DNA of 64,000 nucleotides from Gammaproteobacteria bacterium. GTDB lineage: Bacteria > Pseudomonadota > Gammaproteobacteria > SZUA-140. The stretch covers positions 8,506-72,505 of the forward strand of contig JALSGV010000044.1 in assembly GCA_026982565.1 (NCBI GenBank). Reading direction: 5' to 3'. Positions 11,805-53,213 of this stretch are shown here, one piece after another (the stretch's first letter is position 1; each line of letters opens with the position of its first letter). Made by a program: the position numbers and the translations under genes. The notes beneath the pieces are model-generated. The model saw nothing but the letters and a program-made list of their open reading frames with translations. It had not been told where the DNA came from and searched no databases.

Positions 11805-12367
11805 GCCCTCACCCCTTCCAGAGGGTGTCGCAAAAGCCCCTCTCCCGCCGGAGGGTGTTGTAAAAGGTCTTTGCCACTCAATCGCCCCAGCAGCACACCG
11901 GGTAACTGGCTGACATCCACCGGCGGCATGAAGTGGCCCCGGTTCGCCTGCCAGCAGCGGCTGGCCGGGAAGATCGTGCGCCACCACCGGCGCCAACGGG
12001 CAAGCGTCTGTGGATAAAGATCGAGTTGCTCGATCAACTGCTGCCGACGCTTTGCGCTGAGACCATACTCCATGGCCGTCACCAGTATCACCAGGACACC
12101 CAGATAGACCTTGCGCCCGAGAAAACGCACCGATGGCGGGGTGCAGCGGCGCCGGCATCCCTCGGTGGCGCAACAAAAACTCAGGCGCCTCTCATAGGTC
12201 TCATCCAGTGCACAACGGATACCCCGGGGCTTGCGTGGATAATGGGCTACATGCAGCGTACTGCCACAATGAGCGCAGCCTTCTGATTGAGCCTCGTCGG
12301 CGATTTCCTGATCAATACGAAAGAGAAACTGATAAAATCTGGAATCATTGAAAAATGCATGACACAC
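11714..12367 (-). CDS. Cys-rich hypothetical protein (putative zinc-ribbon; CxxC...CC...C); the 3' end reads through the REP element and overlaps the rnt 3' end
   Basis: 217-aa ORF; [19 protein letters not shown]...[11 protein letters not shown]...[17 protein letters not shown] recall it as a conserved hypothetical family but cannot name it. It sits at the core/island junction, next to an AT-rich stretch. Confidence 0.4.
11811..11875. repeat. REP-like element copy 2 (degenerate; GAGGGTGTCG(C/T)AAAAG as two direct half-sites after a CCCTCACCCC leader)
   Basis: ccctcaccccttccaGAGGGTGTCGCAAAAGCCCCTCTCCCGCCGGAGGGTGTTGTAAAAGG; same family as 1551-1604. Confidence 0.6.
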
Positions 12368-12740
12368 TGGACTTGCCTCCTTTTTTCTTGGTCGAAAAAC
12401 AGGAGACAGCCCCCTTGGATAATTTTCAAGTTATTTGAGGGGGTTTTTCTTTATCCATCAGATAATGTGATCAAAAATCGGGGTAAATCCATCAATTATT
12501 CTGCTCACTCTCACAAGCAGCCGGGTACAGCGTGCGGGAAACTGATCCCTTCGAGACACCCGCACCGCCAGTAGCGATGACACGGGAACGCTTCACCAGG
12601 GTCAACCGCATTCTCCAATCTGGAAACCGCCTGAAAAACACGAAGACGAAAACGACCTTGCCGCTGGCCGGTAAAATTGCGGCAAGGCAACCCATCGAGG
12701 CCATCCCGGATCATGATACTTTGATCTGAGCGCTTTCTTA

Positions 12741-13058
12741 ATGGGTCCCAATCGCTTTGTACTTAAGGTACAAGGCGATTCCATGATCGAGGCTGGGATA
12801 CTTGATGGTGATATGGTCATCATTGAACAGCGGAATTGCGCAGGAAACGGTGACATCGTTGTCGCCCTGATCGACAGGGACGAAGCAACACTGAAATGTC
12901 TTCAGCAAAATGAGGATGGGACAGTTACATTATTTCCCGCCAACCAAACAATGCAGCCCATGAATTATTCAGCGGAGCGCATAGAAATTCAGGGCGTAGT
13001 CATAGGGCAAATGCGATCATACAATACTAACCAACATAGACGCGCCAACGAAAGGTAA
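12741..13058 (+). CDS. S24 (LexA/UmuD-type) peptidase catalytic-domain protein; probably the C-terminal part of a frameshifted LexA-like gene
   Basis: 105 aa; VLKVQGDSMIEAGILDGDMVIIEQ...GDIVVALIDRDEATLKCL...TLFPANQTMQP...IEIQGVVIG is the LexA/UmuD Ser-Lys peptidase core. The upstream out-of-frame ORF 12532-12729 ends ...LPLAGKIAARQPIEAIPDHDTLI, which looks like the LexA linker/cleavage-site region. Confidence 0.55.
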   Translation: MGPNRFVLKVQGDSMIEAGILDGDMVIIEQRNCAGNGDIVVALIDRDEATLKCLQQNEDGTVTLFPANQTMQPMNYSAERIEIQGVVIGQMRSYNTNQHRRANER

Positions 13059-13063
13059 CCAGA

Positions 13064-14218
13064 ATGCAGGAAGCAACACACTACAAAGGCAGGGAGCACA
13101 GCGGCATCAAGCACTATCTTCTTGAAAGCTACCTGGAAGTACTGTTCATGATAATTGGCCAACATGAACGAAGAATATGCTACGTCGATTGCTTTTCAGG
13201 CCCTTGGAACGAAGCGAACGAGAACCTGGCTGGCACATCGATCGCGCTATCTCTGAATGTTATGCGCAAATGCCGCAACAGCCTAAGAAAACTGGGTAAA
13301 TCCGTCGAGTTTCGAGCCCTGTTCATCGAGAAGGAAAAGCATGCCTATAAAAAGCTCAACGCCTATCTGAAAGAAACCCATATAGATGGCGTCACATCAG
13401 AGGCTAAAAATGGTGAATTCCTTGACTTGCGCCCTGAGATACTGAAGTGGTGTAGCCCCAATGACTTTGTATTTTTCTTTATTGATCCGAAAGGCTGGAA
13501 GAACGCTATTGAAATACCAACACTGTCACCCCTATTGCGGCGTCAGCGATCAGAATTCCTGATAAACTTTATGTACGACTTCTTGAATCGTGCCCTTACA
13601 CAGGAACAATTTCAGGAAGATATGAACTCAATATTTGGTGAAATACCAGACACATCAGGAATGACACCGAAGGAAAGGGAAGAGCACCTGATACAGAGAT
13701 ACCTGGATTGCCTCAGATCCGTACCTACTGACAATAAAGACAGGCTACGATCAGCATATGTAAGTATATTGGACCCTATCAAAGACAGGACAAAATATCA
13801 CCTTGTTTATCTTACTCGCCACCCCTTGGGTATCGTGAAATTTATGAATGCCTCGGAAAAAATAGATATCGTACAGAAACGGGTACGCGCCAAAACAAAA
13901 CAACAGCGAAGGATCGAATCGACGAGACAGGAGGAGTTATTCTTCGACGAACCCGATTCCAGCACCACAGATACCGTGGCTATGGAAAGCGTAAAACAAT
14001 ATTGGCTAGAGAAACTTGCTACTACACCACGAGCATACGGGATAGAAGAGCTTGCAGACATGCTGGAAGAGACAAATTGGTTCGAAACAAATTTACAGCA
14101 AGCATTCAATGAGCTTATAGAGGAAGGTAAAGTGGTGAATATTGATTCTCGCGGCAAACGCCCCAAAAGGCCCGTGCACTTTGACAAGAACGAACAATTG
14201 AAAAGGACAAAGCCATGA
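13064..14218 (+). CDS. TcmP-like protein (three-Cys-motif partner protein family, as I recall TIGR04474), paralogue 1
   Basis: 384 aa. The N-terminal block HSGIKHYLLESYLEVLF...RICYVDCFSGPW parallels HSLAKHRVYEEYLLHYI...LTLIDGFAGGGVY in the second paralogue, an FxGxG-like nucleotide-binding motif. Directly followed by a Gp37/Gp68 gene with a 4-bp overlap. Confidence 0.55.
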   Translation: MQEATHYKGREHSGIKHYLLESYLEVLFMIIGQHERRICYVDCFSGPWNEANENLAGTSIALSLNVMRKCRNSLRKLGKSVEFRALFIEKEKHAYKKLNAYLKETHIDGVTSEAKNGEFLDLRPEILKWCSPNDFVFFFIDPKGWKNAIEIPTLSPLLRRQRSEFLINFMYDFLNRALTQEQFQEDMNSIFGEIPDTSGMTPKEREEHLIQRYLDCLRSVPTDNKDRLRSAYVSILDPIKDRTKYHLVYLTRHPLGIVKFMNASEKIDIVQKRVRAKTKQQRRIESTRQEELFFDEPDSSTTDTVAMESVKQYWLEKLATTPRAYGIEELADMLEETNWFETNLQQAFNELIEEGKVVNIDSRGKRPKRPVHFDKNEQLKRTKP

Positions 14219-14970
14219 GTACGCAATCTTCTATTGAATGGACCGAACAGACGTGGAATCCGGTAACAGGATGCACGAAGATATCCCCTGGATGCAAACA
14301 CTGCTATGCCGAAACTATGGCGAGGAGGCTCGAGGCCATGGGTGTTCGTGGATATGAAAATGGTTTCAGCCTTACCCTACTTCCAGAACGCCTGGGTGAA
14401 CCTCTGAAGCGCAGGAAACCGACGGTATATTTTGTTAACTCGATGAGCGACCTGTTCCATGAGGAGATTCCGGATAGCTTTATCCAACAAGTCTTCGATA
14501 TCATCAGACAAACACCTCAACACACCTATCAAATCTTGACCAAACGTGCCTACAGGATGGCGGAATTCTTCGATCATTACACTGCACCTCGAAATGCCTG
14601 GCTTGGCGTTTCAGTCGAAGATAGAAGACACGGTTTACCAAGAATCAAAGCACTCCGTAAAATATCAGCACAGATTCGGTTCTTGTCCGTAGAACCATTA
14701 CTCGAGGATCTTGGGAAAATTGATTTGCGGGATATCCATTGGGTCATTGTCGGAGGCGAATCCGGACCGAAGGCCCGCCCAATGAAGCAAGACTGGGTAA
14801 TCAATGTTCAGCGCCAGTGCGAACAACAAAATGTTGCCTTCTTCTTTAAGCAATGGGGCGGCTGGGGAGCTGACGGCAAAAAACGGGCAAAGAAACAAAA
14901 TGGCAGGACGCTATTAGGAAAGACGTGGGATGAAATGCCGACGCCTACGCTAGGCAATCAGTTTTTATAA
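14215..14970 (+). CDS. Phage Gp37/Gp68-family (DUF5131) three-Cys-motif protein
   Basis: 251 aa; SIEWTEQTWNPVTGCTKISPGCKHCYAETMA is the family's characteristic N-terminal W...WNP.TGC...GC..CYA motif (C-x6-C-x2-C), followed by VEPLLEDLG...VIVGGESGP.ARPM...W. Confidence 0.75.
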   Translation: MSTQSSIEWTEQTWNPVTGCTKISPGCKHCYAETMARRLEAMGVRGYENGFSLTLLPERLGEPLKRRKPTVYFVNSMSDLFHEEIPDSFIQQVFDIIRQTPQHTYQILTKRAYRMAEFFDHYTAPRNAWLGVSVEDRRHGLPRIKALRKISAQIRFLSVEPLLEDLGKIDLRDIHWVIVGGESGPKARPMKQDWVINVQRQCEQQNVAFFFKQWGGWGADGKKRAKKQNGRTLLGKTWDEMPTPTLGNQFL

Positions 14971-14984
14971 ATATCACCCTGATA

Positions 14985-16340
14985 TTGATAGGAGTAATAG
15001 ATTTGCCAAAAAAGGAATATGATTGGCAGCTTGGCGAGGATCCCCCAAAGATTGAACTGCACAGCCTGGCTAAACATCGTGTTTACGAAGAATACCTCCT
15101 CCACTACATCCAGGTACTAAATTCTAATCCAAAGATTCCAAAATTTCGGCTAACACTGATAGACGGCTTCGCCGGCGGCGGCGTCTATCTCGACCCAAGA
15201 AACAATAGCCTATATACCGGGTCGCCACTGCGCCTTATCAAGGCGGCAGAAGCAGCGGCTTCTGCGGTAAATGTCAAACGGCAGCAAGGAGGGGTTCGTA
15301 ACCCTTTTGAACTACAGGCTGAGTATTTCTTCATTGAAAAGAAAAAGTCAAACCATGACTATCTGAACTGGTATCTGCGCGAACAGGGTTTGGGAGAACG
15401 CCTCAATAAGGATATCTTCTCATGGCCGGGTCAGTTCACAAAATTTCTGCCAACATTAATTAGCCGTATTAGCAGCAAAGGGAAAAGTCAACGGTGTATT
15501 TTTTTATTGGACCAATACGGTTATGGAGAAATCCCGTTTCCAGATATTCAAACAATTTTCGCAAAATTGCCCCATGCCGAGATCATATTGACCTTTGCTA
15601 CAGACTGGCTCATCGACTACATGTCAAACAAGCCAGAATATCTCAAAACTCTACAACGAATCGGGATCGCTCATGAGCTAGATATCGATCAATTATTGAA
15701 CTCCAAGAACGACACACCACAATGGCGACAACTAGTCCAATTTGAATTACATAAAGCCATTCCAAAACTCAGTGGCGCACTGCATTACACCCCCTTCTTT
15801 ATTGTGTCACCAGAGGCCAACCGCTCATTCTGGTTAATCCACCTTTCAAACCATCCGCGCGCGCGTGATGTAATGACACAATTGCATTGGCAGCTGAAGA
15901 ATCACTTCACACATTATGGCGGAGCTGGACTCCATATGTTTGGCTACGACCCGATGAAAGATGAACAACTGATCGGCGTGGCCGACATGTTTGGTAATAG
16001 TGAATTTTCCTTTGACAAGATTGCAAGAAAAAGAACTATCGAAGGGATAGTAGAAGAACTTCCACGGCTGATACACCGTTTCGCTGATGGAATTCGGTTT
16101 GATGAGTTCTACCGTTTAGTCGCTAACCAAACACCCGCTACGAGCGACCATATTCGAGAAGGCGCAAATCTATTGGCAGAGATTAAGGAGCTTGAAATTC
16201 TAGGCCCCAATGGAGAAAGACGGCGGAAAGCAAATACTATTACTAATCAAGATATTATTCGACCGCCTCAGCAAAAGACCCTCAGTTTTAGCAATAATGT
16301 GCCACTTGAAAGGAAAAACGAAAAAGCAACTAAAAAGTGA
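14985..16340 (+). CDS. TcmP-like protein, paralogue 2 (longer, C-terminal extension)
   Basis: 451 aa. Shares the HS..KH...Y...Y...D.F.G.G N-terminal architecture with the 13064-14218 product, and has a mid-region FLLDQYGYGEIPF like FFFIDPKGWKNAIEIP in paralogue 1. Confidence 0.55.
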   Translation: MIGVIDLPKKEYDWQLGEDPPKIELHSLAKHRVYEEYLLHYIQVLNSNPKIPKFRLTLIDGFAGGGVYLDPRNNSLYTGSPLRLIKAAEAAASAVNVKRQQGGVRNPFELQAEYFFIEKKKSNHDYLNWYLREQGLGERLNKDIFSWPGQFTKFLPTLISRISSKGKSQRCIFLLDQYGYGEIPFPDIQTIFAKLPHAEIILTFATDWLIDYMSNKPEYLKTLQRIGIAHELDIDQLLNSKNDTPQWRQLVQFELHKAIPKLSGALHYTPFFIVSPEANRSFWLIHLSNHPRARDVMTQLHWQLKNHFTHYGGAGLHMFGYDPMKDEQLIGVADMFGNSEFSFDKIARKRTIEGIVEELPRLIHRFADGIRFDEFYRLVANQTPATSDHIREGANLLAEIKELEILGPNGERRRKANTITNQDIIRPPQQKTLSFSNNVPLERKNEKATKK

Positions 16341-16361
16341 CACATGCAACATTCTCAATCA

Positions 16362-19067
16362 TCAATCTGATATTCGCGCAAAACGCTCAAAATCTTTCAA
16401 ATGCCGTGATTCATTGATCTCGTTATGGGGGATCAGCAGGTATTTCCATGGTTTCCCGCCATGTTTTTCCGCATATTCCGAAGCATGCCGACACCACTGG
16501 GCCGCTACCTCAGCTTTGGCCAACGCTTCCGAATCCTGCATGTCGGACTTGGCTTTGGTTTCCACCATATAAATCACACGATCCGTCTCGGCCACGAAAT
16601 CCGGCACGTATTCGGGCTGTTCCGCGCCGTGCTGGTAGTAGGTCTGGAACTGCCCCTTGACAGGCCGGAACCACTTTTCCACGTCGCGCTCCAGGATAAC
16701 GGCGAACCGTCGTTCGCTGTCTGAATCGAACTTTTGTAGTGGATAGAGGCATTTTTTGAACCCACCGAACAGCATCTGCTTGATCCGGCCTTTGTCATCC
16801 ACGGTTTCACGATAATTGCGAACCGGATGCTTTTCCGACGCCGTATAGTTGCAGGGCTTGAGCTGGGTGAATCCGCGGCTGACCTTGACCTCATATCCAG
16901 CCGCTTTTTCCCAGAAATGCTCCATCATCTGGGTATGAATATGCTCGCCGATAAGCCGTCGGTCACGGTCCAATACTGCCTGAGCCTCGTCCTTGGACAG
17001 ATAGCTCAACAGGTGTCGCACAACCTGTCCAGCCAGGTCGTAGAGCAAATCGGCATGTGCGGCATAGTCGATATCGTCGTAGTCAACCAGCGTGTATACG
17101 ACATAATCTTCGAGTCGCTGCTCAGTGATACCCACTTCCGAGGCCAGGGTCTCCTGCTCGTTGGTGCGCAAGTTCTGGATGATCAGCTCCCGATCCACAG
17201 GTTGCAGGTGCAGGCCGCTCAAATCCAGGGTAAAGGGATTGAAGCCCACGGTCACTTCTCCAGTTGGAACCACCGCAATTCGGGGAATATCGATAATCTT
17301 CCGGCTGACAATCTCGGTGGTCCTGGCCACGATCGTTTCCAGATCGACTGCCTCTTTCTCCAACAGCTCACCTTGCATAGGTGTCAGGCGTTCCTTGACC
17401 CGCTCCATGATGGCCTCACGCACATGGGGCTGGTTCAGGGCTGAACTGGTGGGCACCTTGTCATGCTGCTTTTCCAGTTCATGAATCACATCAAGCACCG
17501 CACGGGCCGCCTCCTTTTCCGCTTCCTGGGTGAATACTGGCGCTTCCAGACCTTCTGGCTTGATTTCATACTGTGTTCCACCCGCACTTGTTGCCTTGGG
17601 CTCAGCCAGCCCCAAGGCTTCCTCTGCAGTGGAACCCACGGTGATGCTGATCATCCCCTCGTCATCGTCCGGTGCTTCCAGAATCACCTGTTTGAGTCGG
17701 ATGGGCGAATCTCCCCGGTTGGCCTCGTCGATGATCTCCTGAAAGCGATCATGGGCGATGATATTGAGCCTATCCACCGCACTCGCGCCGGTACGTTTCC
17801 CGTAGGGCAATCGCAAGCCGCGGCCGATGGACTGTTCGATCAAGGTACGCGCATTGGCGGCACGCAACGGCACGATGGTGTAGAGATTGGTAACATCCCA
17901 GCCCTCCTTGAGCATGTTGACGTGGATCACGATCTCAGTCGGCTCCCCCTCGCTCTCCACGGCCAGCAGCCGCTCAATCATCTCCTCTTCCGCCTTGCCG
18001 GTCTTGCTGCTGTCCACCTGGATCACCTTGTCGCGGTAACGGCCCTCGAAGAAGGCCTCGGACTGAATCAACGCCAGTAACTGCGATGCATGCGTGGTAT
18101 CACGGGCGATCACGAGCACGAAGGGTTTGACCGTTTTTACGCTGTTCTGGCGCGCATAGGTCATCAGCTCCACCTTGGTAGCCTCGTGCACACGAATGCC
18201 GTCCTCCAGCTTGATCTTTTCGATCTCCTCCGGCGTATGGCGTTTGGCGTCGAAATCGCGTTGGGTAACTACTGCTGGCTCTTTGACGAAACCGTCCTCC
18301 ATGGCACGAGCCAGGGGATAATCCATCACCACGTTCTTGAACGGCACAGGCCCACGGTTGGATTCCACGAAGGGGGTCGCCGTCAGTTCCAGGCCAAACA
18401 GGGGTTTCAATTCATTGATGGCGCGCACCCCGGCGCTGGCGCGGTAGCGGTGCGACTCATCCATCAGCAGCACCAGATCGGGCAACTCGGCGAGATAATT
18501 GAAGTAGCTGTCCCCCAGGTACTCGGACAGGCGCTTGATACGGGGACTCTTGCCGCCACGCACCTCCGAGTTGATCTTGGAAATATTGAAAATGTTAATC
18601 ACGACAGGCGACAGCAGGCTCAGATTACCCGCGCGCTGTTCATAATTGTCCCCAGTGATGATCTCTGGTGGATAGGCAGCGAACTCGGCGATGCCCTTGA
18701 ACACATACTTGGGTGTGTTGGGGGTAAAGTCCGTGATCAACTTGTCGTAGATGGTCAGGTTCGGCGCCAGCACGAAAAAGTGCTTGAAGCCATGGGCCAG
18801 GTGCAGATAGCTGATAAAAGCCCCCATCAGGCGCGTCTTACCCACACCAGTGGCCAACGCGAAACACAGCGACGGAAACTCCCGCTCGAAATCCTCCAGC
18901 GTGGGGAACTCCGCCTTGAGGATATTTAGCACCGCCTCCAGATCGCGGTCATGGCTGCGCATATCCGGTGCAGTATCCAACGCCCTGGCCAATTTCTCCA
19001 GGGACTCGGCCTGGGGAGGGCGCAGTGACAACCGCCCCTTGATGGAATTCAACACGCGCAGATTCAT
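16362..19067 (-). CDS. res: Type III restriction-modification system restriction subunit (Res; SF2 helicase-like ATPase with C-terminal nuclease)
   Basis: 901 aa. Walker A LATGVGKTRLMG, motif II LVLLMDESHRY, motif III LELTATPF. The start overlaps the mod stop by 4 bp. Confidence 0.85.
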   Translation of the reverse strand: MNLRVLNSIKGRLSLRPPQAESLEKLARALDTAPDMRSHDRDLEAVLNILKAEFPTLEDFEREFPSLCFALATGVGKTRLMGAFISYLHLAHGFKHFFVLAPNLTIYDKLITDFTPNTPKYVFKGIAEFAAYPPEIITGDNYEQRAGNLSLLSPVVINIFNISKINSEVRGGKSPRIKRLSEYLGDSYFNYLAELPDLVLLMDESHRYRASAGVRAINELKPLFGLELTATPFVESNRGPVPFKNVVMDYPLARAMEDGFVKEPAVVTQRDFDAKRHTPEEIEKIKLEDGIRVHEATKVELMTYARQNSVKTVKPFVLVIARDTTHASQLLALIQSEAFFEGRYRDKVIQVDSSKTGKAEEEMIERLLAVESEGEPTEIVIHVNMLKEGWDVTNLYTIVPLRAANARTLIEQSIGRGLRLPYGKRTGASAVDRLNIIAHDRFQEIIDEANRGDSPIRLKQVILEAPDDDEGMISITVGSTAEEALGLAEPKATSAGGTQYEIKPEGLEAPVFTQEAEKEAARAVLDVIHELEKQHDKVPTSSALNQPHVREAIMERVKERLTPMQGELLEKEAVDLETIVARTTEIVSRKIIDIPRIAVVPTGEVTVGFNPFTLDLSGLHLQPVDRELIIQNLRTNEQETLASEVGITEQRLEDYVVYTLVDYDDIDYAAHADLLYDLAGQVVRHLLSYLSKDEAQAVLDRDRRLIGEHIHTQMMEHFWEKAAGYEVKVSRGFTQLKPCNYTASEKHPVRNYRETVDDKGRIKQMLFGGFKKCLYPLQKFDSDSERRFAVILERDVEKWFRPVKGQFQTYYQHGAEQPEYVPDFVAETDRVIYMVETKAKSDMQDSEALAKAEVAAQWCRHASEYAEKHGGKPWKYLLIPHNEINESRHLKDFERFARISD

Positions 19068-20857: not shown

Positions 20858-20866
20858 GATTTACCT

Positions 20867-21427: not shown

Positions 21428-22691
21428 GCTTATACAGATACTCGATACCCGTTATAGCCAGTGTCTGTCGCCACGTTTCCTGGCGTTCATCCAGCGCCGA
21501 GAAATCCTCAAGGTCAACCGCGTTCTGGCGGTTACGGTACTGGGTTACCCGTTTGCCAAACTCATCGGGTGCTTGGTCAAGAGAGATGAATGTAACCAGC
21601 ACCTCGGCGGGATGGTCGTCGAAATAGGCTGCATTTTGCTCTGCAATGGTACCAACAGTTTGTGCGCCATTGATGATGGAAATATCACGGACTCGAAAAC
21701 GTCCTTGCTGCCGATCTTGTTGAATCGGCGGTAGCTGCTGAATACTTGAGCAGAGAAATGTCACTCCATTGTTGAAATAGAAGAAATGATCCCATTCTTC
21801 CTGCAAAGTTTTCGCCATGCCGTCATTGACAACAGTCGAGCCCTTGAATCTCCGTATATTTTTCTCGACTATGCGGTCGCCATACTGCTGCTCCAAATTA
21901 GCGAGGTTTTTTGCCGACATTCGCCCATAGAAACCTCGGTACGGGCTTTCAATATAGCCAAAATCGAGCAGATTGACTTCAGTATCTATGGGTTGAGCCG
22001 CTTGATCGTCCAGTTGAAATCCATGGAGGCTTGTCAGCCCTCGCGAATAGCAGCGAAGAAAATCGGGCACCGTAGCATTGTATGTATGTTCGAGGTCTGA
22101 GAATATGTTTCTGCGGTCATCTGATATTGCTCCCCCGGTGTGAGCAAGAACGACTTTGACTCGGTGACCTTCATCTGCCAGGGCGCTTTCAATGGCATGT
22201 CTTTTCTCGTTCAGAGCCTCATTGAAGCGGTCGTATTTTCCAGCCAGAAGATCCACGACACCATCCTTGAACTTGGATACATCCCCCAGGTCAGGTTCAC
22301 CTCTCCCGCTGGAGATATATTTGGATTGAATCAACCATAGTGTTCCGTCCGCGCCAATATAAACAGAATCGATGCCGTGATCGTCACCGCCATCGATGCA
22401 GGCAGCAACGGCTTCTTCTTGAGTGGCCCCTGCTTCATGAGTTAGCACAAAGGCTGCGATAGCTTTGGATAGAAAATTGTTTCGTCGTGCGTCATCATTC
22501 GCACCAATACCTGTAATTAATGCACCAAACTCATTGTCCAATGACTCAGTCAAAAGCCTTAGTTCAAGTGGCGTTCCTTGTGGTGGCATTTTCACGATTC
22601 CCGGATTTCGTAACAAAACAATACCCTGCATTTCCTCTAGCTTGGCTTTGTCAATGGATGCAAACGACGTGTTTCGCCTACCGTTGCCCAA
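21378..22691 (-). CDS. AIPR-family abortive-infection-like protein (restriction-endonuclease-like N-terminal region plus AIPR domain)
   Basis: 437 aa. N-terminal HGIDSVYIGADGTLWLIQSKY (Mrr-cat-like D...QxK) and C-terminal AIPR hallmark ISIINGAQTVGTI (NGxQT). The true start may be the internal Met at 22631, which would remove the 55-bp overlap with the upstream ATPase. Confidence 0.7.
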   Translation of the reverse strand: MGNGRRNTSFASIDKAKLEEMQGIVLLRNPGIVKMPPQGTPLELRLLTESLDNEFGALITGIGANDDARRNNFLSKAIAAFVLTHEAGATQEEAVAACIDGGDDHGIDSVYIGADGTLWLIQSKYISSGRGEPDLGDVSKFKDGVVDLLAGKYDRFNEALNEKRHAIESALADEGHRVKVVLAHTGGAISDDRRNIFSDLEHTYNATVPDFLRCYSRGLTSLHGFQLDDQAAQPIDTEVNLLDFGYIESPYRGFYGRMSAKNLANLEQQYGDRIVEKNIRRFKGSTVVNDGMAKTLQEEWDHFFYFNNGVTFLCSSIQQLPPIQQDRQQGRFRVRDISIINGAQTVGTIAEQNAAYFDDHPAEVLVTFISLDQAPDEFGKRVTQYRNRQNAVDLEDFSALDERQETWRQTLAITGIEYLYKHGDNDPLVIGCSLQRS

Positions 22692-24955
22692 TAGCTGCCA
22701 GATTTACGGTTGCGTGGCCATCCACTATCCGGGTCAACCAGGCTTTCCATCAACGCCAACACTTCTTTTCCAAATGCGAGTGCATCATCATCCAGTAATT
22801 CAAATGACAGCGCATTGAAATGCGCACCAAACAAGTTTCTCGCCTGTATGATTCTTGTAAGTTCATTCAGATGAGGTTCGAGCACCTTCTCGATGTAGGT
22901 CACTGTGCCATCCGGTTCTTCCTTCTTGTGTTCAACTTTCAGAGCCGCCCTAAGCTTCTTGTCAATTGCTGGCAAGAGGTCACCCAAGGTATAACGACCA
23001 CTTGCGCGGCGTGGTACCTGGCACTCGTACGTCACCGTCAGAAATTCGAGTGCGGCCTCGAGGACCACACCTGCTTTTGCGCAAACCAGCTGCACGTCAG
23101 GCGGCGTCTCCTCCAGCAGCATTTTCAATCTTTCAATATCAGGTATGCTTTGAGTGAGGGAGATGCCGCCATCCAACGTCCATTTCTTGAGTTCGACAAA
23201 CTGGCATTGCCCATTTTTCAGCCAACCCCAACGAAACTTCTCTTTCCAGGGACGATAGTGCGTTGTGATGATGCATTGACGGAATTTGTTGGCTTCCTCG
23301 TACAACATTTCAATCAGTCGCTCAACATGAGGCTCATCCACGCTACCGAGCACATCATCTAGAACAAGTATCGTCTCCTCTGGCTTTTCTCTCCGGACCA
23401 GCGACAGGAATACGCAAAGCCCCAAGGTATCCAGATGGGAATCACTGAAATAGGCCTGGGGCGGCGCGCCTCCCTTCCCCAAGAATTCTGCCGAAATATC
23501 CAAAGAGGCCCGCCTCACCGGATCCAGTTCAAGGCTGATTTTATTTAAACCTTCTCCAGGATGAACCTTCTCGTACAACACCCCGACATCATTAGCGATT
23601 TCGTGCAATATATTGTCGGTATATTTCTTTCGCTCAGTTTCTACAATTTCGAGAGCTTTTTTCAACCGCGGCAGTAACACATCGAGTTCCTGCTGGATCT
23701 GACTGTTGGATTCCAAGGTATCGAGTGATGTTTTCAGAGCTTCGATAAACCGCATACTATCCGCGCACTCGTCCGACAGTACCCTCCATTTCCCGATCAG
23801 CTCTTCGCCATTTGCCAGCCACTCTGTCCAGTCATCTACCCTGGCTGGATAAGGCAGGTCTGGTATTGTGATATCAACCGGCAAAGCATCGTCTTTTGTA
23901 GACTCTACAAATTTTTGGGCATCCTGCAAAGCCGTGTTAATCAGTTCATCAAGCTCTCGTTCTTTCTGTTCCAGCGAACTTTCCAACAGCGTCAGTTTGC
24001 GCCTAGCTTCTTTGAGTTGATTGGCAACCACCTGAGACTCGATCCTTTCCGTGACTCTTGCCGGCAGTCCGGCGACCTTCTCCGCACTCTCGCACAGTGG
24101 ACAAACTTCAGGGTCGGGATGATTTTCGAAATGACTCTGCGCAGCATGCAGTATTTCGAGTATCTCGACATATTCCCCAGCTACTTTCTCAGTCAAGCCC
24201 AGAACATGCTGCTTCTGATCTTCAATGGCAGCCTTTATGCTGGATATTTCCTTTTTGCGTGCACAAATTGCTTCTGGATAACTGAGAAGTTTTCGGAATG
24301 TTTCTCGCAATTCATCCAAAGCAGCCCTTGTAGCCTCGACTGATGCCATGTCCCGGGCAACTTCATTCTGCGCCCACTGAATCGCATCATCACCCACCTT
24401 TCCTGCCTGTTCCCAGAAGTTTTCTATCGTATCCCTGTTTTCCTGAACACGTGCAATGGCAACTTCGATCCGGCTTTCGATATCGCGGATAAGCGCACGC
24501 AGATTGGCTTCCGATGCTTCAACACCTGCCACGTCGATAAAGTGGCTGATAGCTGAATAGCGATCAGCTGGTCTTGCTTCGACCAGATTCAGGATTTGAC
24601 TCCTTCGTAATACGTTTACAAGCGGGCGATGATCTTCTGAATCCACCAGTACGTTGCCTTTTTCAAGCGTCGCCTTGCAGCTGCCAGTTGATAGTGTCAG
24701 CGTAACCGAGGTGTCAGACGGCGTTTTGCCAACCGTATGCCAGTATTTACCAGTCCTGTTCAGCCCTCTGTTATCAAGCGAGCCGACCCTGCCGTTGCCG
24801 ATGAAGTCGAATGCGTCACATATTGTTGACTTACCGGTACCGTTCTCACCATATATAAGTGTCAGCTTTTTTCCTTTTTCGAAGGTGAGGGTGAACGGGG
24901 CAACAGCCCCCCTAAGATGATCAATTGTCAGTGATTTTAGAGCACCGCTATTCAT
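22637..24955 (-). CDS. SMC/Rad50/RecF-like ABC ATPase with long coiled coil, CxxC zinc-hook-like motif and an about 200-aa C-terminal domain of unknown function
   Basis: 772 aa. Walker A LIYGENGTGKSTICDA at the N-terminus. Mid-protein HPDPEVCPLCES within a predicted coiled coil. C-terminal signature-like FSDSHLDTLGL, Walker B ILVLDDVLGSVD and H-loop CIITTHY, then an extra domain with no recognisable motif. Confidence 0.75.
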   Translation of the reverse strand: MNSGALKSLTIDHLRGAVAPFTLTFEKGKKLTLIYGENGTGKSTICDAFDFIGNGRVGSLDNRGLNRTGKYWHTVGKTPSDTSVTLTLSTGSCKATLEKGNVLVDSEDHRPLVNVLRRSQILNLVEARPADRYSAISHFIDVAGVEASEANLRALIRDIESRIEVAIARVQENRDTIENFWEQAGKVGDDAIQWAQNEVARDMASVEATRAALDELRETFRKLLSYPEAICARKKEISSIKAAIEDQKQHVLGLTEKVAGEYVEILEILHAAQSHFENHPDPEVCPLCESAEKVAGLPARVTERIESQVVANQLKEARRKLTLLESSLEQKERELDELINTALQDAQKFVESTKDDALPVDITIPDLPYPARVDDWTEWLANGEELIGKWRVLSDECADSMRFIEALKTSLDTLESNSQIQQELDVLLPRLKKALEIVETERKKYTDNILHEIANDVGVLYEKVHPGEGLNKISLELDPVRRASLDISAEFLGKGGAPPQAYFSDSHLDTLGLCVFLSLVRREKPEETILVLDDVLGSVDEPHVERLIEMLYEEANKFRQCIITTHYRPWKEKFRWGWLKNGQCQFVELKKWTLDGGISLTQSIPDIERLKMLLEETPPDVQLVCAKAGVVLEAALEFLTVTYECQVPRRASGRYTLGDLLPAIDKKLRAALKVEHKKEEPDGTVTYIEKVLEPHLNELTRIIQARNLFGAHFNALSFELLDDDALAFGKEVLALMESLVDPDSGWPRNRKSGSYWATVGETRRLHPLTKPS

Positions 24956-25160
24956 CTGACGCCTCCTTGTCTAGCGCTTTTTCTATCAGCAAACGCCAGT
25001 CCTCTGCCCTCAATTTACCTGAAGCTATTTCCCGGGACGTATGCGGAGCATCTTCCTTTAGAATCAATCCCTCATCCAACAATGCGTTGGTTACGATTTC
25101 TGCGAGTTCCTCGGCAGGTGTTTTGTCATTTTCTTCTGCGTCACTCATATGAGCCTCCAT
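24948..25160 (-). CDS. Small acidic hypothetical protein (70 aa) between the SNF2 helicase and the SMC-like ATPase genes, overlapping both ends
   Basis: ORF MEAHMSDAEENDKTPAEELAEIVTNALLDEGLILKEDAPHTSREIASGKLRAEDWRLLIEKALDKEASDE. Overlaps the SNF2 stop by 16 bp and the ATPase start by 8 bp. No homology recognised. Confidence 0.4.
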   Translation of the reverse strand: MEAHMSDAEENDKTPAEELAEIVTNALLDEGLILKEDAPHTSREIASGKLRAEDWRLLIEKALDKEASDE

Positions 25161-28009
25161 TCGATGGTGAACAGGTGCTTTTCCTCTGCCTTTTGCGTGA
25201 GCCGGGCTTCCAACTCAACAATGAGCGCATTGCGCTTTTCTTCTACCTCATCCTGCCGATCAAACAGTTCACGACGTAGCCTGTTGCGCTTCTGTTCCAG
25301 CTCGCGCTGTTGTTTCTGCCAGTCCAGTTTTTCCTCCAGCGTTGGCGCGGTTGCAGCGGTGCGCCGCACTTCCTTGATCTGACGGTCCATTTCCTTGATT
25401 TCCTGTTCCAGCCCTACCTTAAGGTCATCCGCCCAGGCATCGAGCTTTTGGACCTCCTGTTCAAAGTACCCAAGGTTGCGCCGGTTGATGGACTCGGCCA
25501 GTCGGTTTTTTCGTTCGATCAGGTCGGATTCCAGTGCAGGATTAACTGGTAGTGCGCTGATTTGCTCCTGGTGGCTTGCAGGCAGGCGCAGGAGCTTTTC
25601 CGGGTCGTCTTCAGGTAGTACTTCACCACTATCGGTCACGGCAGAAACTACGAGGTGTTGTTCGGTTCCACCAAGAGACTGGATGGTCAGTAGTTCCGCA
25701 ATCAGAACCCCGCTTTTCCCTCGCCAGGCCTCCAGCGTGGTCAGGCGACCGCCTTTCCAGGCGCCATAGTCGAATACCAGTCGTGCCGGAGGCAGATCAC
25801 GGGCTTTGGCCTGTTGCAGCACATACTCGCCCAGGGGATGCCCCAGACGGTAGAGATGGGCGTCACCTGTGCGTCGTGGCAGTTCGTAACGGCCCAACGG
25901 GACGGCATCCCGAAGGCTGTCATCAGGCAGGGACTCGAGAATGAAGCTATTATCGCCGTCGAAGCGGGCATGACGTTTGAGTTCCACCCGGGTGAGGTTC
26001 ATGAATAGCTGTTCGTAACGGTTGCGGGTTTCGAGGCTGTCGATACGGATCTTTTCCAGTACCTGTTCATCGAAATGCTCGAACAGGGCTTCTCTGGTCT
26101 TGACCATGGCCTCGTTGATTTCAGTGGCCAGCTCCAGCTGCAACTGTTCGAAGCTCTTGCGGATGGTTTCGGGATCCCGGCAGCTTTGATAGATATCCGC
26201 GATACGGCGCTCAAAATCCACGCCTGAACCAATGACGCCGAGCACTTCGTCACTGGCACCGAAGACACCGTCGAACAGGCGGAACTTCTGTTCCAGCAGT
26301 TCATAGACCCGGCGATCCGCCTCGTTGGTCAGATCGACGAAGTTCACCACCACGACATCGAACTTTTGCCTGTAGCGGTGGCAGCGGCCGATACGCTGCT
26401 CGATGCGTTGCGGGTTCCAGGGCAGATCGTAGTTGATGACCAGCGAACAGAATTGCAGGTTGATGCCTTCCGCGCCGGCTTCGGTAGCGATCATGATCTT
26501 GCCCTGGTCGCGGAAGTATTCCACCAGTGCGGCGCGGGTGTCGGCGGTTTTTGAGCCGGTGATGCGATCTGAGCCGGCGTGTTTTTCCAGCCAGTCCTTG
26601 TAGACCTGACGTGCTGCCGGATTGTCGTTGGTGCCGTTGAACAGAACGATGCCATCCCCGTAGGCAGTTTCCCTGAGCAGGGACAGAAGATAGTCCTGCG
26701 TACGGCGGGATTCAGTGAAGATCAGTGCCTTGCGCGGTGCGCCAAGTTTGTCGAGTTCCCTGAAAGCGCGATCCAGGGCGGTGATCAGCGCCTTGCCCTT
26801 GGCGTTGTCGCGTATCGCCTTCGCCATGGTCTCGTAGCGGCGCAACTCGGCAATTTCGTCACGAATGGCCTGCTTGTCTTTCTCATCGAGCAGGTTGTTT
26901 GCCAGCTCAATCTCCCACTCCTCGGCTTCTTCATCAAGGGCTTCGTAATCCTTGTCAAGGGAGTCGATGAGTGATTCGGCCGTTTCGGCATCTTCGAGCA
27001 GCTTTTCCAACCGGGCCGCCATGGTACCCAGGGCACCTCCAATGGCATAAGTGGATGACGCCAGCAGCTTCCACAGAACCAACGAGATGAGTTGCCGCTG
27101 GCCACTAGGCAGGGCCTTGAGTTCTGGGCGGCGCAGGTAGTCGGCGACCAGTTCGCGCAGGTGCTGCTCGTCCCTGGTGGGCGTGAACTGCTCCACTAGG
27201 GGAATGCGTTTGGTATAGGCAATGGTGTGGGCCACCTGCTTGCGCAGCGTGCGCTTGCACAGAGGCGCGATGCGGCTGCGCAGCTGCTGGAAGACGGCGT
27301 TGTCGTTCAGCCGCGCATACTGGCGACGAAAACTGTCCAGATCGCCAAACACGCGCTCGTCGATGATACTGACCAGTCCATAGAGCTCCAGCAAGGAATT
27401 TTGCAGTGGAGTAGCGGTGAGTAGCACCTTGGATTTCACGCCGGCCAGCCCATCCTTGAGGGTGTTGGCGATGATATTACCTTTCTTATAGACATTGCGC
27501 AGGCGGTGCGCCTCGTCATAGACCAGCAGATCCCAGGGAACCATGCGCACATTGTCAATCCTGGACTTGGCGAACTGATAGGAGCAGATCACCGGCCGGT
27601 CGGTGTCGAAGGGGTTGAGTACACCTTGTCTCCTGAGCTGGTTGTAGCTCTTGGACTCGAGTATCAAGGAGTCCAGCGCAAATTTGTCCAGTAACTCCTG
27701 ATGCCACTGCTTGCGCAGATTGGCGGGCACGATGATGAGGATGCCACGCTTGCGCTCCGCCCAGAATTGGGCAAGGACGAGGCCGGCTTCGATAGTCTTC
27801 CCAAGACCAACCTCATCAGCCAGGATAACACCACGGGACAAGGGGTTCTGGCATGCGAACAGTGCCGCCTCGACCTGGTGAGGGTTCAAATCAACCTGAG
27901 CATCCATGAGGGTAGATCCCAAGGAATCCACCGAATCACCAGCAGCCCGGCGTGTGAGCTGCCAGGCAAAAAACTGGCTGTGGTAAAGGGTAAGCCCGAG
28001 GTCGTTCAC
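25145..28009 (-). CDS. SNF2-family (Swi2/Snf2) helicase-like ATPase with C-terminal coiled-coil region
   Basis: 954 aa. Motif I ILADEVGLGKTIEA, II LLVYDEAHRLRN, III VLLTATPLQNS, VI EQRIGRCHRYRQK. The C-terminal 130 aa is charged and heptad-like (EEKLDWQKQQRELEQKRNRLRRELF...). Confidence 0.85.
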   Translation of the reverse strand: MNDLGLTLYHSQFFAWQLTRRAAGDSVDSLGSTLMDAQVDLNPHQVEAALFACQNPLSRGVILADEVGLGKTIEAGLVLAQFWAERKRGILIIVPANLRKQWHQELLDKFALDSLILESKSYNQLRRQGVLNPFDTDRPVICSYQFAKSRIDNVRMVPWDLLVYDEAHRLRNVYKKGNIIANTLKDGLAGVKSKVLLTATPLQNSLLELYGLVSIIDERVFGDLDSFRRQYARLNDNAVFQQLRSRIAPLCKRTLRKQVAHTIAYTKRIPLVEQFTPTRDEQHLRELVADYLRRPELKALPSGQRQLISLVLWKLLASSTYAIGGALGTMAARLEKLLEDAETAESLIDSLDKDYEALDEEAEEWEIELANNLLDEKDKQAIRDEIAELRRYETMAKAIRDNAKGKALITALDRAFRELDKLGAPRKALIFTESRRTQDYLLSLLRETAYGDGIVLFNGTNDNPAARQVYKDWLEKHAGSDRITGSKTADTRAALVEYFRDQGKIMIATEAGAEGINLQFCSLVINYDLPWNPQRIEQRIGRCHRYRQKFDVVVVNFVDLTNEADRRVYELLEQKFRLFDGVFGASDEVLGVIGSGVDFERRIADIYQSCRDPETIRKSFEQLQLELATEINEAMVKTREALFEHFDEQVLEKIRIDSLETRNRYEQLFMNLTRVELKRHARFDGDNSFILESLPDDSLRDAVPLGRYELPRRTGDAHLYRLGHPLGEYVLQQAKARDLPPARLVFDYGAWKGGRLTTLEAWRGKSGVLIAELLTIQSLGGTEQHLVVSAVTDSGEVLPEDDPEKLLRLPASHQEQISALPVNPALESDLIERKNRLAESINRRNLGYFEQEVQKLDAWADDLKVGLEQEIKEMDRQIKEVRRTAATAPTLEEKLDWQKQQRELEQKRNRLRRELFDRQDEVEEKRNALIVELEARLTQKAEEKHLFTIEWRLI

Positions 28010-28077
28010 TATTTCTATTCCGGTATTGTCATTTCCGTTTCAGATTCGCATCCCACATCATTTTACATTCAACTACA

Positions 28078-29331
28078 TCATGTCTCCCAAAGACATCGGA
28101 TTGGCACCGCGTACAAGCCCTCTCCAAAGGGCATCGTGGCTTCACCGTCGTATAGCACTATCCCTCCGACAAATCGTTGAGCAGCAGCCTGCTTGAGTCT
28201 GCGCAGTCCTCGAAAATCTGAGGCCGTTACCGTGGCCGCTGCCTTGATCTCGACACCGGCAACCCGCTGGCCGCTCGTTTCCAGCACGATATCCACTTCG
28301 GCGCCATCCTTGTCGCGGAAATGGTGAAAGTTGACGGTATCTTCCCACCCGCTTGCCTGGCGGCGTAATTCCTGAAACACGAAAGTTTCCAATAGCTGGC
28401 CCAGCAGCGCACGATCGGACTTCAGTGCCGCCACGTCTACCCCCAGCAACGCACAGGCAAGGCCGGTGTCACCCAAGTGCAGCTTGGGGGTCTTGATCAA
28501 GCGTCGCAGGCGGTTGCTGTGCCAGGATGGCAGTTCCTCCAGCAGGAATACCCGTGTCAGCAGCGTGATGTAGTCGCGTATGGTCTGCCGGCTGAGCTGG
28601 AATGGCGATGCCAGATCACTCACGTTGAGCAGCCGGGCGGTCTGTCCGGCGGCCAGCATCAACAAACGCGGCAAGGCATCCAGTAACCGGATACGCGCCA
28701 GATCCCGTACGTCGCGCTGCACTAGCGTCTCGATGTAATCGCGGTACCAAGCGGCCCGCCGGCGTGGAGCCAGGCGGGCAAGCGCCGCAGGATAGCCGCC
28801 TGCGACGATCCGTTCGGGCAGCTCGTCGCCGAGACGAGGCCAGTTACCCATTTCGAATCCCGCCCCGAACAGCGTGTTCAGAAACGTGGGTGGCGTTCTC
28901 GTCAGCTCCACCTGGGCTAACGGGTGCAGTCGCAGGATCTCCATGCGCCCCGCCAGGGAATCAGCGAGTTTCGGTACCAACAGCACGTTGGCAGAGCCGG
29001 TGAGCAGGAACCGGCCCGGTGTGCGGTCGCGGTCCACGGTGCTTTTCAGGGCAGTGAATAGTTCGGGAACCCGCTGCACCTCATCGAGAATGGCCCGCTC
29101 CGGCAGATCCCCGGCAAAACCCACCGGGTCCTCCCGAGCAGCGGCAAGCGCAACATCATCATCGAAACTGAAGTACGCACAACCCCTCGCCTCACCCACC
29201 ATACGCGCCAATGTGGTCTTGCCACACTGGCGCGGCCCGTGGATCAGAACGACAGGTGTATCGGCCAGCGCCTCATCGAGGCGCGGCTCCACCAGGCGGG
29301 GGTAAATTGCAGGATTGGCCATACCGGCCAA
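28078..29331 (-). CDS. AAA+ ATPase of the DUF4143/AAA_14 (COG1373) family
   Basis: 417 aa. Walker A VLIHGPRQCGKTTLAR. Typical length and architecture. High-GC, core-like composition. Confidence 0.8.
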   Translation of the reverse strand: MAGMANPAIYPRLVEPRLDEALADTPVVLIHGPRQCGKTTLARMVGEARGCAYFSFDDDVALAAAREDPVGFAGDLPERAILDEVQRVPELFTALKSTVDRDRTPGRFLLTGSANVLLVPKLADSLAGRMEILRLHPLAQVELTRTPPTFLNTLFGAGFEMGNWPRLGDELPERIVAGGYPAALARLAPRRRAAWYRDYIETLVQRDVRDLARIRLLDALPRLLMLAAGQTARLLNVSDLASPFQLSRQTIRDYITLLTRVFLLEELPSWHSNRLRRLIKTPKLHLGDTGLACALLGVDVAALKSDRALLGQLLETFVFQELRRQASGWEDTVNFHHFRDKDGAEVDIVLETSGQRVAGVEIKAAATVTASDFRGLRRLKQAAAQRFVGGIVLYDGEATMPFGEGLYAVPIRCLWET

Positions 29332-29414
29332 TCGTAACCTTAGGAATCGGCCAATTGCAAGTTTTTGCCCCGTCCAATTGTAACTTTATGGTTCGGCTGA
29401 TTGTAACTTTCCGG
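29323..29414. repeat. Four tandem, roughly 24-bp direct repeats (consensus CGGCCAATTGTAACTTT) immediately upstream of the DUF4143 ATPase start
   Basis: ccggCCAATCGTAACCTTagg / tcggCCAATTGCAAGTTTtt / cgtCCAATTGTAACTTTatgg / cggCTGATTGTAACTTTccgg, seen directly; iteron or operator-like. Confidence 0.6.
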
Positions 29415-29764
29415 CCATCTCTGCAGACCCGGAAGGAGATGTCCAGGTGATGGCACTGCCATCACCCTCGGGCCACGAACTCCCTTCGCGCCTGGAAATC
29501 GAAATTCCCCCGAAAGCCCGCACGTTGCTCCACGCTTTCACCGTTGAAATCCCGGAGCCATTCTTCCAGACTGCGGGCTGATACATCGCCATATCGCTTG
29601 GATAAAATCGCACAAACAGAAAACATCAGCAGTCCACGCAGAATAACCCGTCGTCATTCTCGCATATTTCCACTGTGAGTTCCCCAGCCCGTGTTTCTCA
29701 CCAGGAGGCGGGATGAAATAGTCGTGCGAGGCCCCGCTGATGGTGGGCCTGTTGTTTGATCATC

Positions 29765-30703: not shown

Positions 30704-31052
30704 GCACGTCTCCCTGTTGGTCAGGGCAACCGTGGATCTTGCTTCAGGAAGGTGTCAGGACAGAGCTTTGCGGCGAGATCCGCGGCTGTCCTGAGTTGAT
30801 TGAAATTTATGAAATGTAATCAGCACAGACCGCAGTGGAAACCCGGTTTCCACCACAGTCGCATGGAGCGAACAGTTGATTCTGTGCTGATGAAAGAATT
30901 CATGAAATCAGACTAACTGCGCCACAGCCTCTTTGTCAACACTTCTTCCTGTTCCCGCGAAGACCCTGTCACCGGCCCCGCCTACTGTACTCTGGAACCC
31001 TGGTGAACGATGCATGAACGAACTTCATGGCCGCGTTGCTGCCACCCAGTGA

Positions 31053-40436: not shown

Positions 40437-40447
40437 GGTTTTCCCTG

Positions 40448-43138: not shown

Positions 43139-43246
43139 GTAAGTACAAGCCTGGTGCCAAGCAATTGATACTGCCAGCAGACAACAGCAATTGCCTCAGC
43201 CAGGACTGATTGACCGCAACCGGCTGATGAGCAAATTTTATTATTG

Positions 43247-53178: not shown

Positions 53179-53213
53179 TGTCACAATTCATAAGCAGGAT
53201 CCAGAACACTTAA

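Follow-up and report, generated by a model that had tools for sequence, protein, structure and literature searches.

The window analysed here, a 64-kb stretch of DNA from an uncultured gammaproteobacterium (contig JALSGV010000044.1), carries a defence-rich island of 19,731 bp at positions 11856-31586. It lies between the convergent genes rnt and grxD, in the centre of a palindromic hairpin of the repetitive extragenic palindromic (REP) type. The rnt stop codon is at 11804 and grxD occupies 31674-31997 (stop codon 31674), so that the two genes are 19,869 bp apart. A first-pass annotation had described a foreign, defence-rich insertion at this site, and our analysis agrees; each gene that it named was confirmed by domain searches. 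The borders are formed by the following features:

11806-11855, no strand: left half of a split palindromic REP, directly after the rnt stop codon
11837-11855: left copy of a 19-bp direct repeat, CCCCTCTCCCGCCGGAGGG
31587-31652, no strand: right half of the split REP, adjoining the grxD stop codon at 31674
31587-31605: second copy of the 19-bp direct repeat

An intact REP copy at 1525-1615 (approximately 90 bp) is one long palindrome, and the pieces that flank the island match its left and right halves. The arms at 11806-11836 and 31621-31652 are inverted relative to each other, and the central 19 nt, CCCCTCTCCC[G/T]CCGGAGGG, are kept by each half as a direct repeat, the two copies being identical at 18 of 19 positions. 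In silico deletion of 11856-31605 produced a full hairpin with an energy of -76.4 kcal/mol, compared with -73.4 kcal/mol for the intact copy and -27.7 and -48.8 kcal/mol for the separate halves, and the rebuilt empty site aligned with the intact copy over its full length. Since the halves of the split REP lie next to rnt and grxD, the island was delimited as 11856-31586. The earlier extent of about 16-17 kb (12290-29420) is hereby replaced: its left border at a REP was correct, while the right border, set at a tandem repeat array, lay about 2.2 kb too far left of the true edge, the other REP half. The REP probably once stood alone between rnt and grxD as a two-way terminator, and a REP hairpin between convergent housekeeping genes thus served as the landing site for an island without an integrase. 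No tRNA gene was found in the window, and domain searches detected no integrase, excisionase or transposase domain in any island open reading frame (ORF), as the first-pass annotation had supposed for the borders. A classical integrase-borne genomic island was consequently rejected, the 19-bp direct repeats being the only hallmark of such elements that is present. A core-only copy of the REP was also seen at 58213-58233, and the REP elements look like a genome-wide family with a two-arm structure.

The same interval was compared in 80 related genomes. In 45 of them rnt is followed by a convergent grxD, the gene for a glutaredoxin, and hydantoinase B often comes next; the two genes are a median of 144 bp apart, fewer than 500 bp in 32 genomes and at most 8.8 kb. 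Island proteins, the EamA transporter described below among them, were absent from the loci of all 80 relatives, and EamA is thus missing from the interval in all 45 that keep the synteny. It had been proposed to compare the interval between rnt and this transporter; the comparison could be made for rnt-grxD, which is kept without island proteins, but the transporter turned out not to be a conserved flank. The idea that rnt-grxD is a recurrent defence hotspot was rejected, the sole other large insertion (8.8 kb, locus L055) containing a nucleotidyltransferase, an asparagine synthase and a methyltransferase, and no defence genes. RNase T of the source organism is at most 69% identical to that of any species representative (GTDB scan), its nearest relatives by this protein being sulfur-oxidiser-like lineages. 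Near-identical DNA was found in the same population only (an ENA contig, 99.96-99.98%, and a 2.2-kb Logan contig, 100%).

Most of the island is taken up by a cassette of six genes, which runs from 28009 to 16362:

25145-28009, minus strand: SNF2-family helicase, DrmD-related (PF00176, 1e-31; NF038318, 665 bits)
24948-25148, minus strand: acidic protein of 66 amino acids (aa), its frame sharing 4 nt with the SNF2 gene and 8 nt with the SMC-like gene
22637-24955, minus strand: Rad50/SMC-like ABC ATPase, 772 aa (Walker A GENGTGKS36, CPLC285 hook in a coiled coil, Walker B at 529)
20867-22589, minus strand: AIPR/AbiU-like abortive-infection gene, split by a frameshift (PF10592)
19064-20857, minus strand: Type III methyltransferase Mod, beta-class (MTase_III, 7.8e-179; PF01555, 6e-40)
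16362-19067, minus strand: Type III restriction subunit Res (PADLOC REase_III, 5.5e-215; PF04851)

Besides the overlaps listed, Mod and Res share 4 nt, and AIPR is separated from its neighbours by gaps of 47 nt and 9 nt; from this arrangement the cassette is predicted to be one translationally coupled operon. The gene lengths are the norm for their families and the catalytic motifs are all intact. SNF2 contains the motifs GLGKT68, DEAH165 and QRIGRCHR538, followed by about 300 C-terminal aa without a match to any family. In Mod, DPPY75 is followed by the target-recognition domain (approximately 19807-20407) and FGGSG371, and Res has GVGKT74, DESH203 and a C-terminal PD...ExK motif, PDFVAETDRVIYMVETK, at 822. 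The SMC-like protein has a Walker B motif, ILVLDD529, and an H-loop, and its zinc-hook-like CPLC285 motif is invariant in 27 sequences. Foldseek searches with its AlphaFold model returned Rad50 (7e-12), SMC and Lamassu LmuB (9e-10; 9hqx_B, 9uxh_F), and the model identifies it as a Rad50-class ABC ATPase. Its conserved C-terminal domain of about 200 aa carries the motif R706-N-x4-H712, in which R706, N707 and H712 are invariant. This domain gave no significant match in Pfam even at E<=1, in PADLOC or in a PDB sequence search; a separate AlphaFold model of it (mean confidence score pLDDT 70) had a best Foldseek E-value of 0.2, with weak matches to 1wwp and Csx1. The AIPR gene is broken by one frameshift near 21400-21427, at a run of five C residues, into ORFs of 403 aa and 186 aa. 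An intact single-ORF AIPR/AbiU1 was therefore rejected, PF10592 being matched at full length only after repair of the frame: the ORFs rejoined in silico cover its positions 2-305 of 308 in one stretch (7e-38). The break is also found in an independent assembly, hence the gene is a real pseudogene.

To examine how widely the cassette occurs, its loci were sampled via the SMC-like protein, a metagenome scan adding 80 loci to the contexts from named genomes. In this context the SMC-like family is 769-774 aa long, with identities of 53-81%. Where the upstream flank is 5 kb or longer, 31 of 33 loci have SNF2 upstream; where the downstream flank is 7 kb or longer, Mod and Res follow in all 24; and the complete colinear set was found in 17/17 loci with both flanks. 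In most loci the gene for the small protein precedes the SMC-like gene, and the spacing between the latter and Mod is 7-25 bp. The hosts include Thiodiazotropha, Cupriavidus, Desulfobulbaceae and many metagenomes, and this Type III-centred cassette of five to six genes spans Proteobacteria, Desulfobulbaceae, Opitutaceae and many metagenomes. In Thiodiazotropha the order is SNF2, small gene, SMC-like gene, Mod and Res, all co-directional. Of 83 loci, 19 have AIPR, which takes one of two places: between the SMC-like gene and Mod in Cupriavidus taiwanensis, as in the window, and between SNF2 and the small gene in one Desulfobulbaceae genome. It is an optional passenger, dead here; AbiU1/AIPR genes are known to be embedded in restriction-modification (R-M) operons, specifically Type III (PMC3506569, PMC2292703). 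Many cassettes (L092, L105, L114, L123 and others) have an extra gap of approximately 1.1-1.3 kb between Mod and Res, and in L098, L100, L103 and L112 a gap of approximately 1.6-2.0 kb without an AIPR match separates the SMC-like gene from Mod, which points to other variable passengers at these positions. The first-pass annotation had counted at least four stacked systems in the island; the Type III R-M genes, AIPR and the SNF2/SMC trio that it listed apart are one conserved operon.

The divergence of the genes within the cassette is uneven. Across 35 loci, the identity of SNF2 to the window protein correlates with that of Res with r = 0.96, whereas for the SMC-like protein against SNF2 or Res r is about -0.39 when the nearest relative is left out. 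The small and SMC-like genes also stand alone as a pair on Bacteroidota plasmids. Together with the recurrent composition pattern described below, these observations suggest that SNF2, Mod and Res are a co-evolving backbone, in which the small and SMC-like genes would be an embedded, exchangeable pair with a history of its own. One such free-standing pair, on the Fibrella plasmid CP155473.1 (locus L172, 7769-10382), has an SMC-like protein 30% identical to that of the window and no SNF2, Mod or Res; its neighbours encode a patatin-like phospholipase, a ThiF-family protein, a WYL protein and a PDDEXK nuclease.

Composition does vary strongly between the genes, as had been noticed earlier. The GC content at third codon positions (GC3) is 0.77-0.87 in host genes and 0.44-0.74 in island genes: 0.44-0.49 in the TcmP operon (see below), 0.46 in the small gene, 0.48 in Mod, 0.51 in the SMC-like gene, 0.70 in Res and 0.69 in SNF2. 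Jensen-Shannon segmentation of the 8-36 kb part of the window gave breakpoints at 12230, 16400, 19590, 20610 and 25570, with a GC content of 0.675 for the host, 0.455 for 12231-16400, 0.564 for 16401-19590, 0.382 for 19591-20610, 0.498 for 20611-25570 and 0.599 from 25571 onward. The segmentation had been proposed as a check on the island, and its breakpoints are not module borders: three of the five fall inside the cassette, 19590 and 20610 bracketing the target-recognition domain of Mod and 25570 lying inside SNF2. That domain, which coincides with the segment 19591-20610, is only 8-28% identical to its orthologues while the flanking parts of Mod are mostly 62-88% identical, and this indicates that an AT-rich recognition domain has been swapped in, presumably with a change of specificity. 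The description of the Type III R-M genes as AT-rich therefore holds for Mod, mainly for its recognition domain (GC 0.38), but not for Res, which has the same composition as SNF2.

The steps inside the cassette are not peculiar to this locus. In nearly all loci, including those in unrelated hosts, the GC3 of the small and SMC-like genes is below that of SNF2 and Res; for SNF2, small gene, SMC-like gene, Mod and Res it is 0.68, 0.47, 0.45, 0.62 and 0.63 in Thiodiazotropha and 0.39, 0.19, 0.21, 0.37 and 0.44 in a low-GC locus. Since the same internal pattern recurs in unrelated hosts, the steps appear to be a trait of the cassette family and not a record of serial acquisition at the rnt-grxD site, as the first-pass annotation had taken them to be.

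Next to the Res end of the cassette lies a second module, the only part of the island in which an operon is on the plus strand, in agreement with the earlier description of the strands:

12619-13058, plus strand: LexA-like repressor pseudogene (tblastn with the intact 212-aa orthologues of loci L169 and L170)
13064-14218, plus strand: TcmP-1, three-Cys-motif partner protein with a GMT-like winged helix-turn-helix (wHTH) domain (TIGR04474, 7e-30; PDC-M30A)
14215-14970, plus strand: DUF5131 (phage Gp37/Gp68) protein (PF07505, 1e-110; phrog_2045)
14985-16340, plus strand: TcmP-2, a larger second TcmP paralogue (TIGR04474, 2e-60; PDC-M30A, PDC-M41A)

The first of these had been called an S24 remnant. 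An intact ORF with the S24 catalytic domain does exist (12741-13058; PF00717, 6e-24), but it belongs to a LexA-like gene that is 5'-truncated, with the wHTH domain (residues 1-66) gone and a frameshift near 12720, and in which the cleavage site Ala-Gly reads Ala-Arg. DUF5131, a family classed in the radical-SAM superfamily (PMC9477430), carries the three-Cys motif C20-x6-C27-x2-C30 in the window protein, and adjoins TcmP genes. In PADLOC it matches the B components PDC-M30B (1e-116) and PDC-M41B (9e-115), and both TcmP proteins match the A components; the window differs from these candidate systems in having two TcmP paralogues that flank DUF5131 and in that the usual LexA-like regulator is a pseudogene. 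PADLOC lists PDC-M30 and PDC-M41, as well as PDC-S01 (see below), as candidates predicted by genomic association only. TcmP-1 orthologues are directly upstream of DUF5131 in 6/6 loci examined. An intact LexA-like gene of 208-212 aa directly precedes TcmP-1 in three of the six, at a distance of 5 nt in two of these three, as in the window, and in one of the six an HTH_3 gene takes its place. TcmP-2 is absent from these six loci, and a TcmP-2-like gene follows DUF5131 in L159. No sequence relatives of TcmP-2 or DUF5131 were found in the PDB, and the only literature found on the function of TcmP/DUF5131 was the radical-SAM classification of DUF5131. Taken together, the sequences suggest a radical-SAM-like module that is normally under a LexA-like repressor, which has decayed here, and to which a second TcmP has been added.

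The module also keeps company with R-M genes. In two of the six loci the pair is directly followed by a same-strand R-M operon, of Type III in L171 and of Type I in L175, and in the cassette locus L159 DUF5131 and the TcmP-2-like gene come right after Res. This adjacency to same-strand R-M genes in unrelated genomes (L171, 7001-13262; L175, 5001-11158; L159, 8916-14834) hints at an R-M accessory rather than a free-standing system.

On the other side of the cassette are an ATPase gene and a repeat array:

28078-29322, minus strand: AAA_14 and DUF4143 ATPase (PF13635, 1e-46; PDLC04790, 6.6e-168)
29326-29417, no strand: four tandem 23-bp units with the core GGCCAATTGTAAC, starting at 29326, 29349, 29372 and 29395

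The ATPase matches the single-gene defence candidate PDC-S01 (6.6e-168). A scan of 85 loci showed no DUF4143 homologue beside the cassette, the single match, with 27% identity in L093, lying in the Mod region, and the gene is not part of the conserved cassette. The array, previously described as 4 x 24 bp and taken for the island edge, has a period of 23 bp; because it starts just upstream of the DUF4143 start codon, at a distance of 4 nt, it is to be seen as a feature of the promoter or operator region, and it is probably an operator or promoter element of this gene.

The remaining genes lie at the margins of the island:

11863-12367, minus strand: Cys-rich, HTH-like ORF, conserved, with its 3' end cut at the REP junction
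29765-30703, minus strand: EamA/DMT (drug/metabolite) transporter inside the insertion (PF00892; GC3 0.74)
31225-31515, minus strand: internal fragment (96 aa) of HsdR, a Type I restriction subunit; a relic

The open frame of the Cys-rich ORF (GC3 0.50) continues through the REP into rnt and ends at 11714. It is matched by 2006 cluster representatives at E<=1e-3, with a typical length of 185-200 aa, and the homology is limited to query residues 1-168, stopping exactly at the REP junction; the homologues themselves match transposase-type HTH domains at sub-threshold level only. The HsdR fragment corresponds to PADLOC REase_I positions 646-720 of 1029 (4e-14; PF22679) and retains helicase motif VI, QAIARVNR. 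Type I R-M, which needs complete hsdR, hsdM and hsdS, was rejected, this fragment being all that is present. The site has turned over, and the scars are the hsdR fragment, the truncated LexA-like gene and the 3'-cut Cys-rich ORF. Three composition classes and three genes truncated at internal joins make it likely that the whole island underwent serial turnover. A terminator-like hairpin at 12411-12450 (CCCCCTTGG...GAGGGGG, then a T run) lies in the non-coding DNA where the Cys-rich ORF and the LexA-like pseudogene meet and, since no plus-strand gene precedes it, is probably the leftover of a deleted neighbour.

From these results we read the island, with a probability of roughly 0.7, as a variable region inserted in a REP that holds three potentially functional defence units (the six-gene cassette, the TcmP-DUF5131 module and the PDC-S01 ATPase with its own 23-bp repeats) together with relics, its GC mosaic being mostly sub-structure of the cassette. 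Several points weigh against this. The 19-bp repeat sits in a repeated element family, so two independent REP copies may be present instead of one split copy, and the empty site was deduced from distant relatives, the nearest rnt being 69% identical. There is no segmentation break at the right edge of the island, and by composition the right-hand third, from SNF2 as far as the hsdR fragment, cannot be told apart from the host. The loci were sampled through the SMC-like protein and the counts accordingly cover SMC-bearing loci only, and colinearity is evidence of co-inheritance, not of functional integration. The HEPN reading of the SMC-like C-terminal domain, introduced below, is tentative and drawn from the conserved R-N-x4-H motif, and no experiment or paper on this cassette was found in the literature searched.

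The cassette was then related to known defence systems. Mod and Res both show the sequence features of Type III R-M enzymes such as EcoP15I and EcoP1I and are potentially functional: Mod is a beta-class N6-adenine methyltransferase with DPPY before FGGSG and the recognition domain between them, Res combines SF2 helicase motifs with a C-terminal PD...ExK nuclease, and the two genes overlap by 4 nt. The difference is that SNF2, a protein of about 60 aa, the 772-aa Rad50/SMC-like ATPase and sometimes AIPR, none of them components of canonical Type III systems, are added before Mod and Res in the same operon. A Rad50-like ABC ATPase in an R-M operon recalls PrrC-EcoprrI and RloC, where a Rad50-like ATPase with links to R-M carries a fused HEPN anticodon nuclease (PMC3710099). 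The N-terminal part of the SMC-like protein is of the RloC type, with a Rad50/SbcC-like ABC ATPase, a coiled-coil insert and a CxxC hook, and in its extra C-terminal domain R-N-x4-H fits the HEPN pattern Rx4-6H, which makes a HEPN-like domain conceivable. Here, unlike in PrrC, the partner is a Type III and not a Type Ic R-M system, SNF2 and the small protein are added, and no PrrC or RloC match for the SMC-like protein was found in Pfam, PADLOC or NCBIfam.

Class 1 DISARM is approached by SNF2, which is closest to DrmD (PADLOC, 1.3e-198), and by the adenine methyltransferase nearby; in the cassette, though, that enzyme is the Mod of a Type III system and has a Res nuclease as its partner. SNF2 was rejected as a DrmD equivalog, scoring 665 bits with NF038318 against a cut-off of 950 (residues 32-668, model positions 21-655 of 868), and DISARM itself was rejected, no DrmA, DrmB (DUF1998) or DrmC (PLD) being found in island ORFs or homologous cassettes. 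LmuB of Lamassu is the top PADLOC match of the SMC-like protein (5e-27), and the AlphaFold model matches LmuB structures. The partner in the cassette, in contrast, is a 66-aa acidic protein, and a possible effector domain is fused to the C-terminus of the SMC-like protein; Lamassu was rejected, no neighbour matching LmuA or LmuC. A BREX-related system of the Hma type, defined by a DUF499 ATPase (HmaC), an SNF2 helicase and a methylase (PMC12839542), was likewise rejected, as the ATPase here is Rad50/SMC-like and not DUF499. Neither PADLOC 2.0 nor NCBIfam 20 holds a dedicated model for the 772-aa SMC-like component, and the literature searched contained no description of a cassette of SNF2, Rad50/SMC and Type III genes, only general statements on AIPR and R-M. 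By sequence, the cassette is best described as a Type III R-M system with conserved accessory ATPases that is unnamed in curated libraries, and the island itself as an ordinary defence island.

In Type III enzymes, Mod methylates adenine in host sites, and Res, together with Mod, cuts unmodified DNA. A hypothesis regarding the mechanism of the cassette may be put forward on this basis: Mod would methylate adenine in host sites, with a new specificity conferred by the exchanged recognition domain, and Res would cut incoming unmethylated DNA. SNF2, as a translocase or remodeller, would join the Rad50-like ATPase and its small partner in a second layer of defence, which would detect DNA ends or a phage's interference with restriction; analogues would be PrrC, as the guard of the Type I enzyme EcoprrI, and Lamassu. 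By this analogy, it can be proposed with moderate confidence that a second line of sensing or effector proteins is coupled to restriction.

A more far-reaching version, which we hold tentatively and at somewhat less than even odds, is that the cassette is a distinct and widespread multi-layer defence, in which a Type III enzyme is coupled to SNF2 and a Rad50-like sensor with a new, possibly HEPN-like effector, and a second-line response would be triggered by interference with restriction or by phage DNA ends. The TcmP-DUF5131 module would in that case be an SOS-controlled R-M accessory, as suggested by the LexA-like gene upstream in three of six loci and by the R-M operons that adjoin the module in several. 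If the parts do act together, the "guarded restriction enzyme" idea drawn from PrrC-EcoprrI extends to Type III systems, and SNF2 and Rad50-like ATPases gain a testable role.

It is rather unlikely, yet worth weighing, that the cassette is a conserved mini-island, in which a Type III R-M system, a two-gene system of the small and SMC-like genes and a solitary SNF2 travel together and act independently. The existence of the small and SMC-like pair alone on Bacteroidota plasmids, the uncoupling of its divergence from that of SNF2 and Res and the variable presence of AIPR speak for such an assembly, and abortive-infection and HEPN genes embedded in R-M loci have been viewed as separate second-line modules (PMC3710099). 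On the other hand, the order and strand of the genes are invariant, they show translational coupling, the spacing between the SMC-like gene and Mod is tight in most loci, and the SMC-like protein is very conserved in length and sequence in the cassette context; the co-divergence of SNF2 and Res, moreover, points to a common complex or, failing that, to joint selection.

We consider it improbable that the whole 19.7 kb is a single decayed integrative element, which entered the REP loop in one step of site-specific recombination and later lost its integrase. The 19-bp direct repeats at both ends would fit, as would the Cys-rich HTH-like ORF at the left end, which weakly resembles transposase HTH domains, and the closest cassette (Thiodiazotropha, L084, 81-82% identity) does lie between two tyrosine-integrase genes. 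Integrase, excisionase and transposase domains were, however, not found in the island, and three very different composition classes with several genes truncated at internal joins indicate more than one event.

Least probable of all is the original interpretation, that at least four independent defence systems arrived one after another and that the GC steps are their joins: the steps are real, relics of earlier occupants exist (the hsdR fragment, the truncated LexA-like gene and the truncated Cys-rich ORF) and the TcmP operon and the DUF4143 gene are separate from the cassette, but in unrelated hosts all 17 complete loci keep the cassette genes colinear, the internal GC3 pattern is repeated elsewhere, and the steps at 19590/20610 and 25570 fall around the Mod recognition domain and inside SNF2, so that for the 16362-28009 block this interpretation is already largely refuted. 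A variable region with three units and relics therefore remains our reading of the island, and it carries a caution for the annotation of such regions: gene-by-gene annotation over-counts the systems in defence islands and GC steps can mislead, since here they reflect a swapped methyltransferase recognition domain and a recombining sub-module in one operon, not successive arrivals.

Outside the island, a few other features of the window were observed. The lower-GC cluster at 48452-57386 (GC 0.51-0.56) looks like a phosphonate-containing non-ribosomal peptide pathway, with genes for a stand-alone adenylation-peptidyl carrier protein, a thiamine pyrophosphate-dependent decarboxylase, a phosphoenolpyruvate mutase and a 1390-aa non-ribosomal peptide synthetase with condensation, adenylation, thiolation and thioesterase domains (C-A-T-TE). 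Exopolysaccharide genes occur at 39369-45485 and 59052-61474 (Wzz/GNVR, a Poly_export/SLBB protein of 896 aa, YjbH and two group-1 glycosyltransferases), and this half of the window has a GC content of 0.51-0.61 compared with 0.63-0.70 on the pyrC-rnt side. Finally, a 166-bp direct repeat (4217-4382 and 4601-4766, 93% identical) corresponds to the tandem lipoyl domains of a 2-oxoacid dehydrogenase E2/E3 fusion gene.

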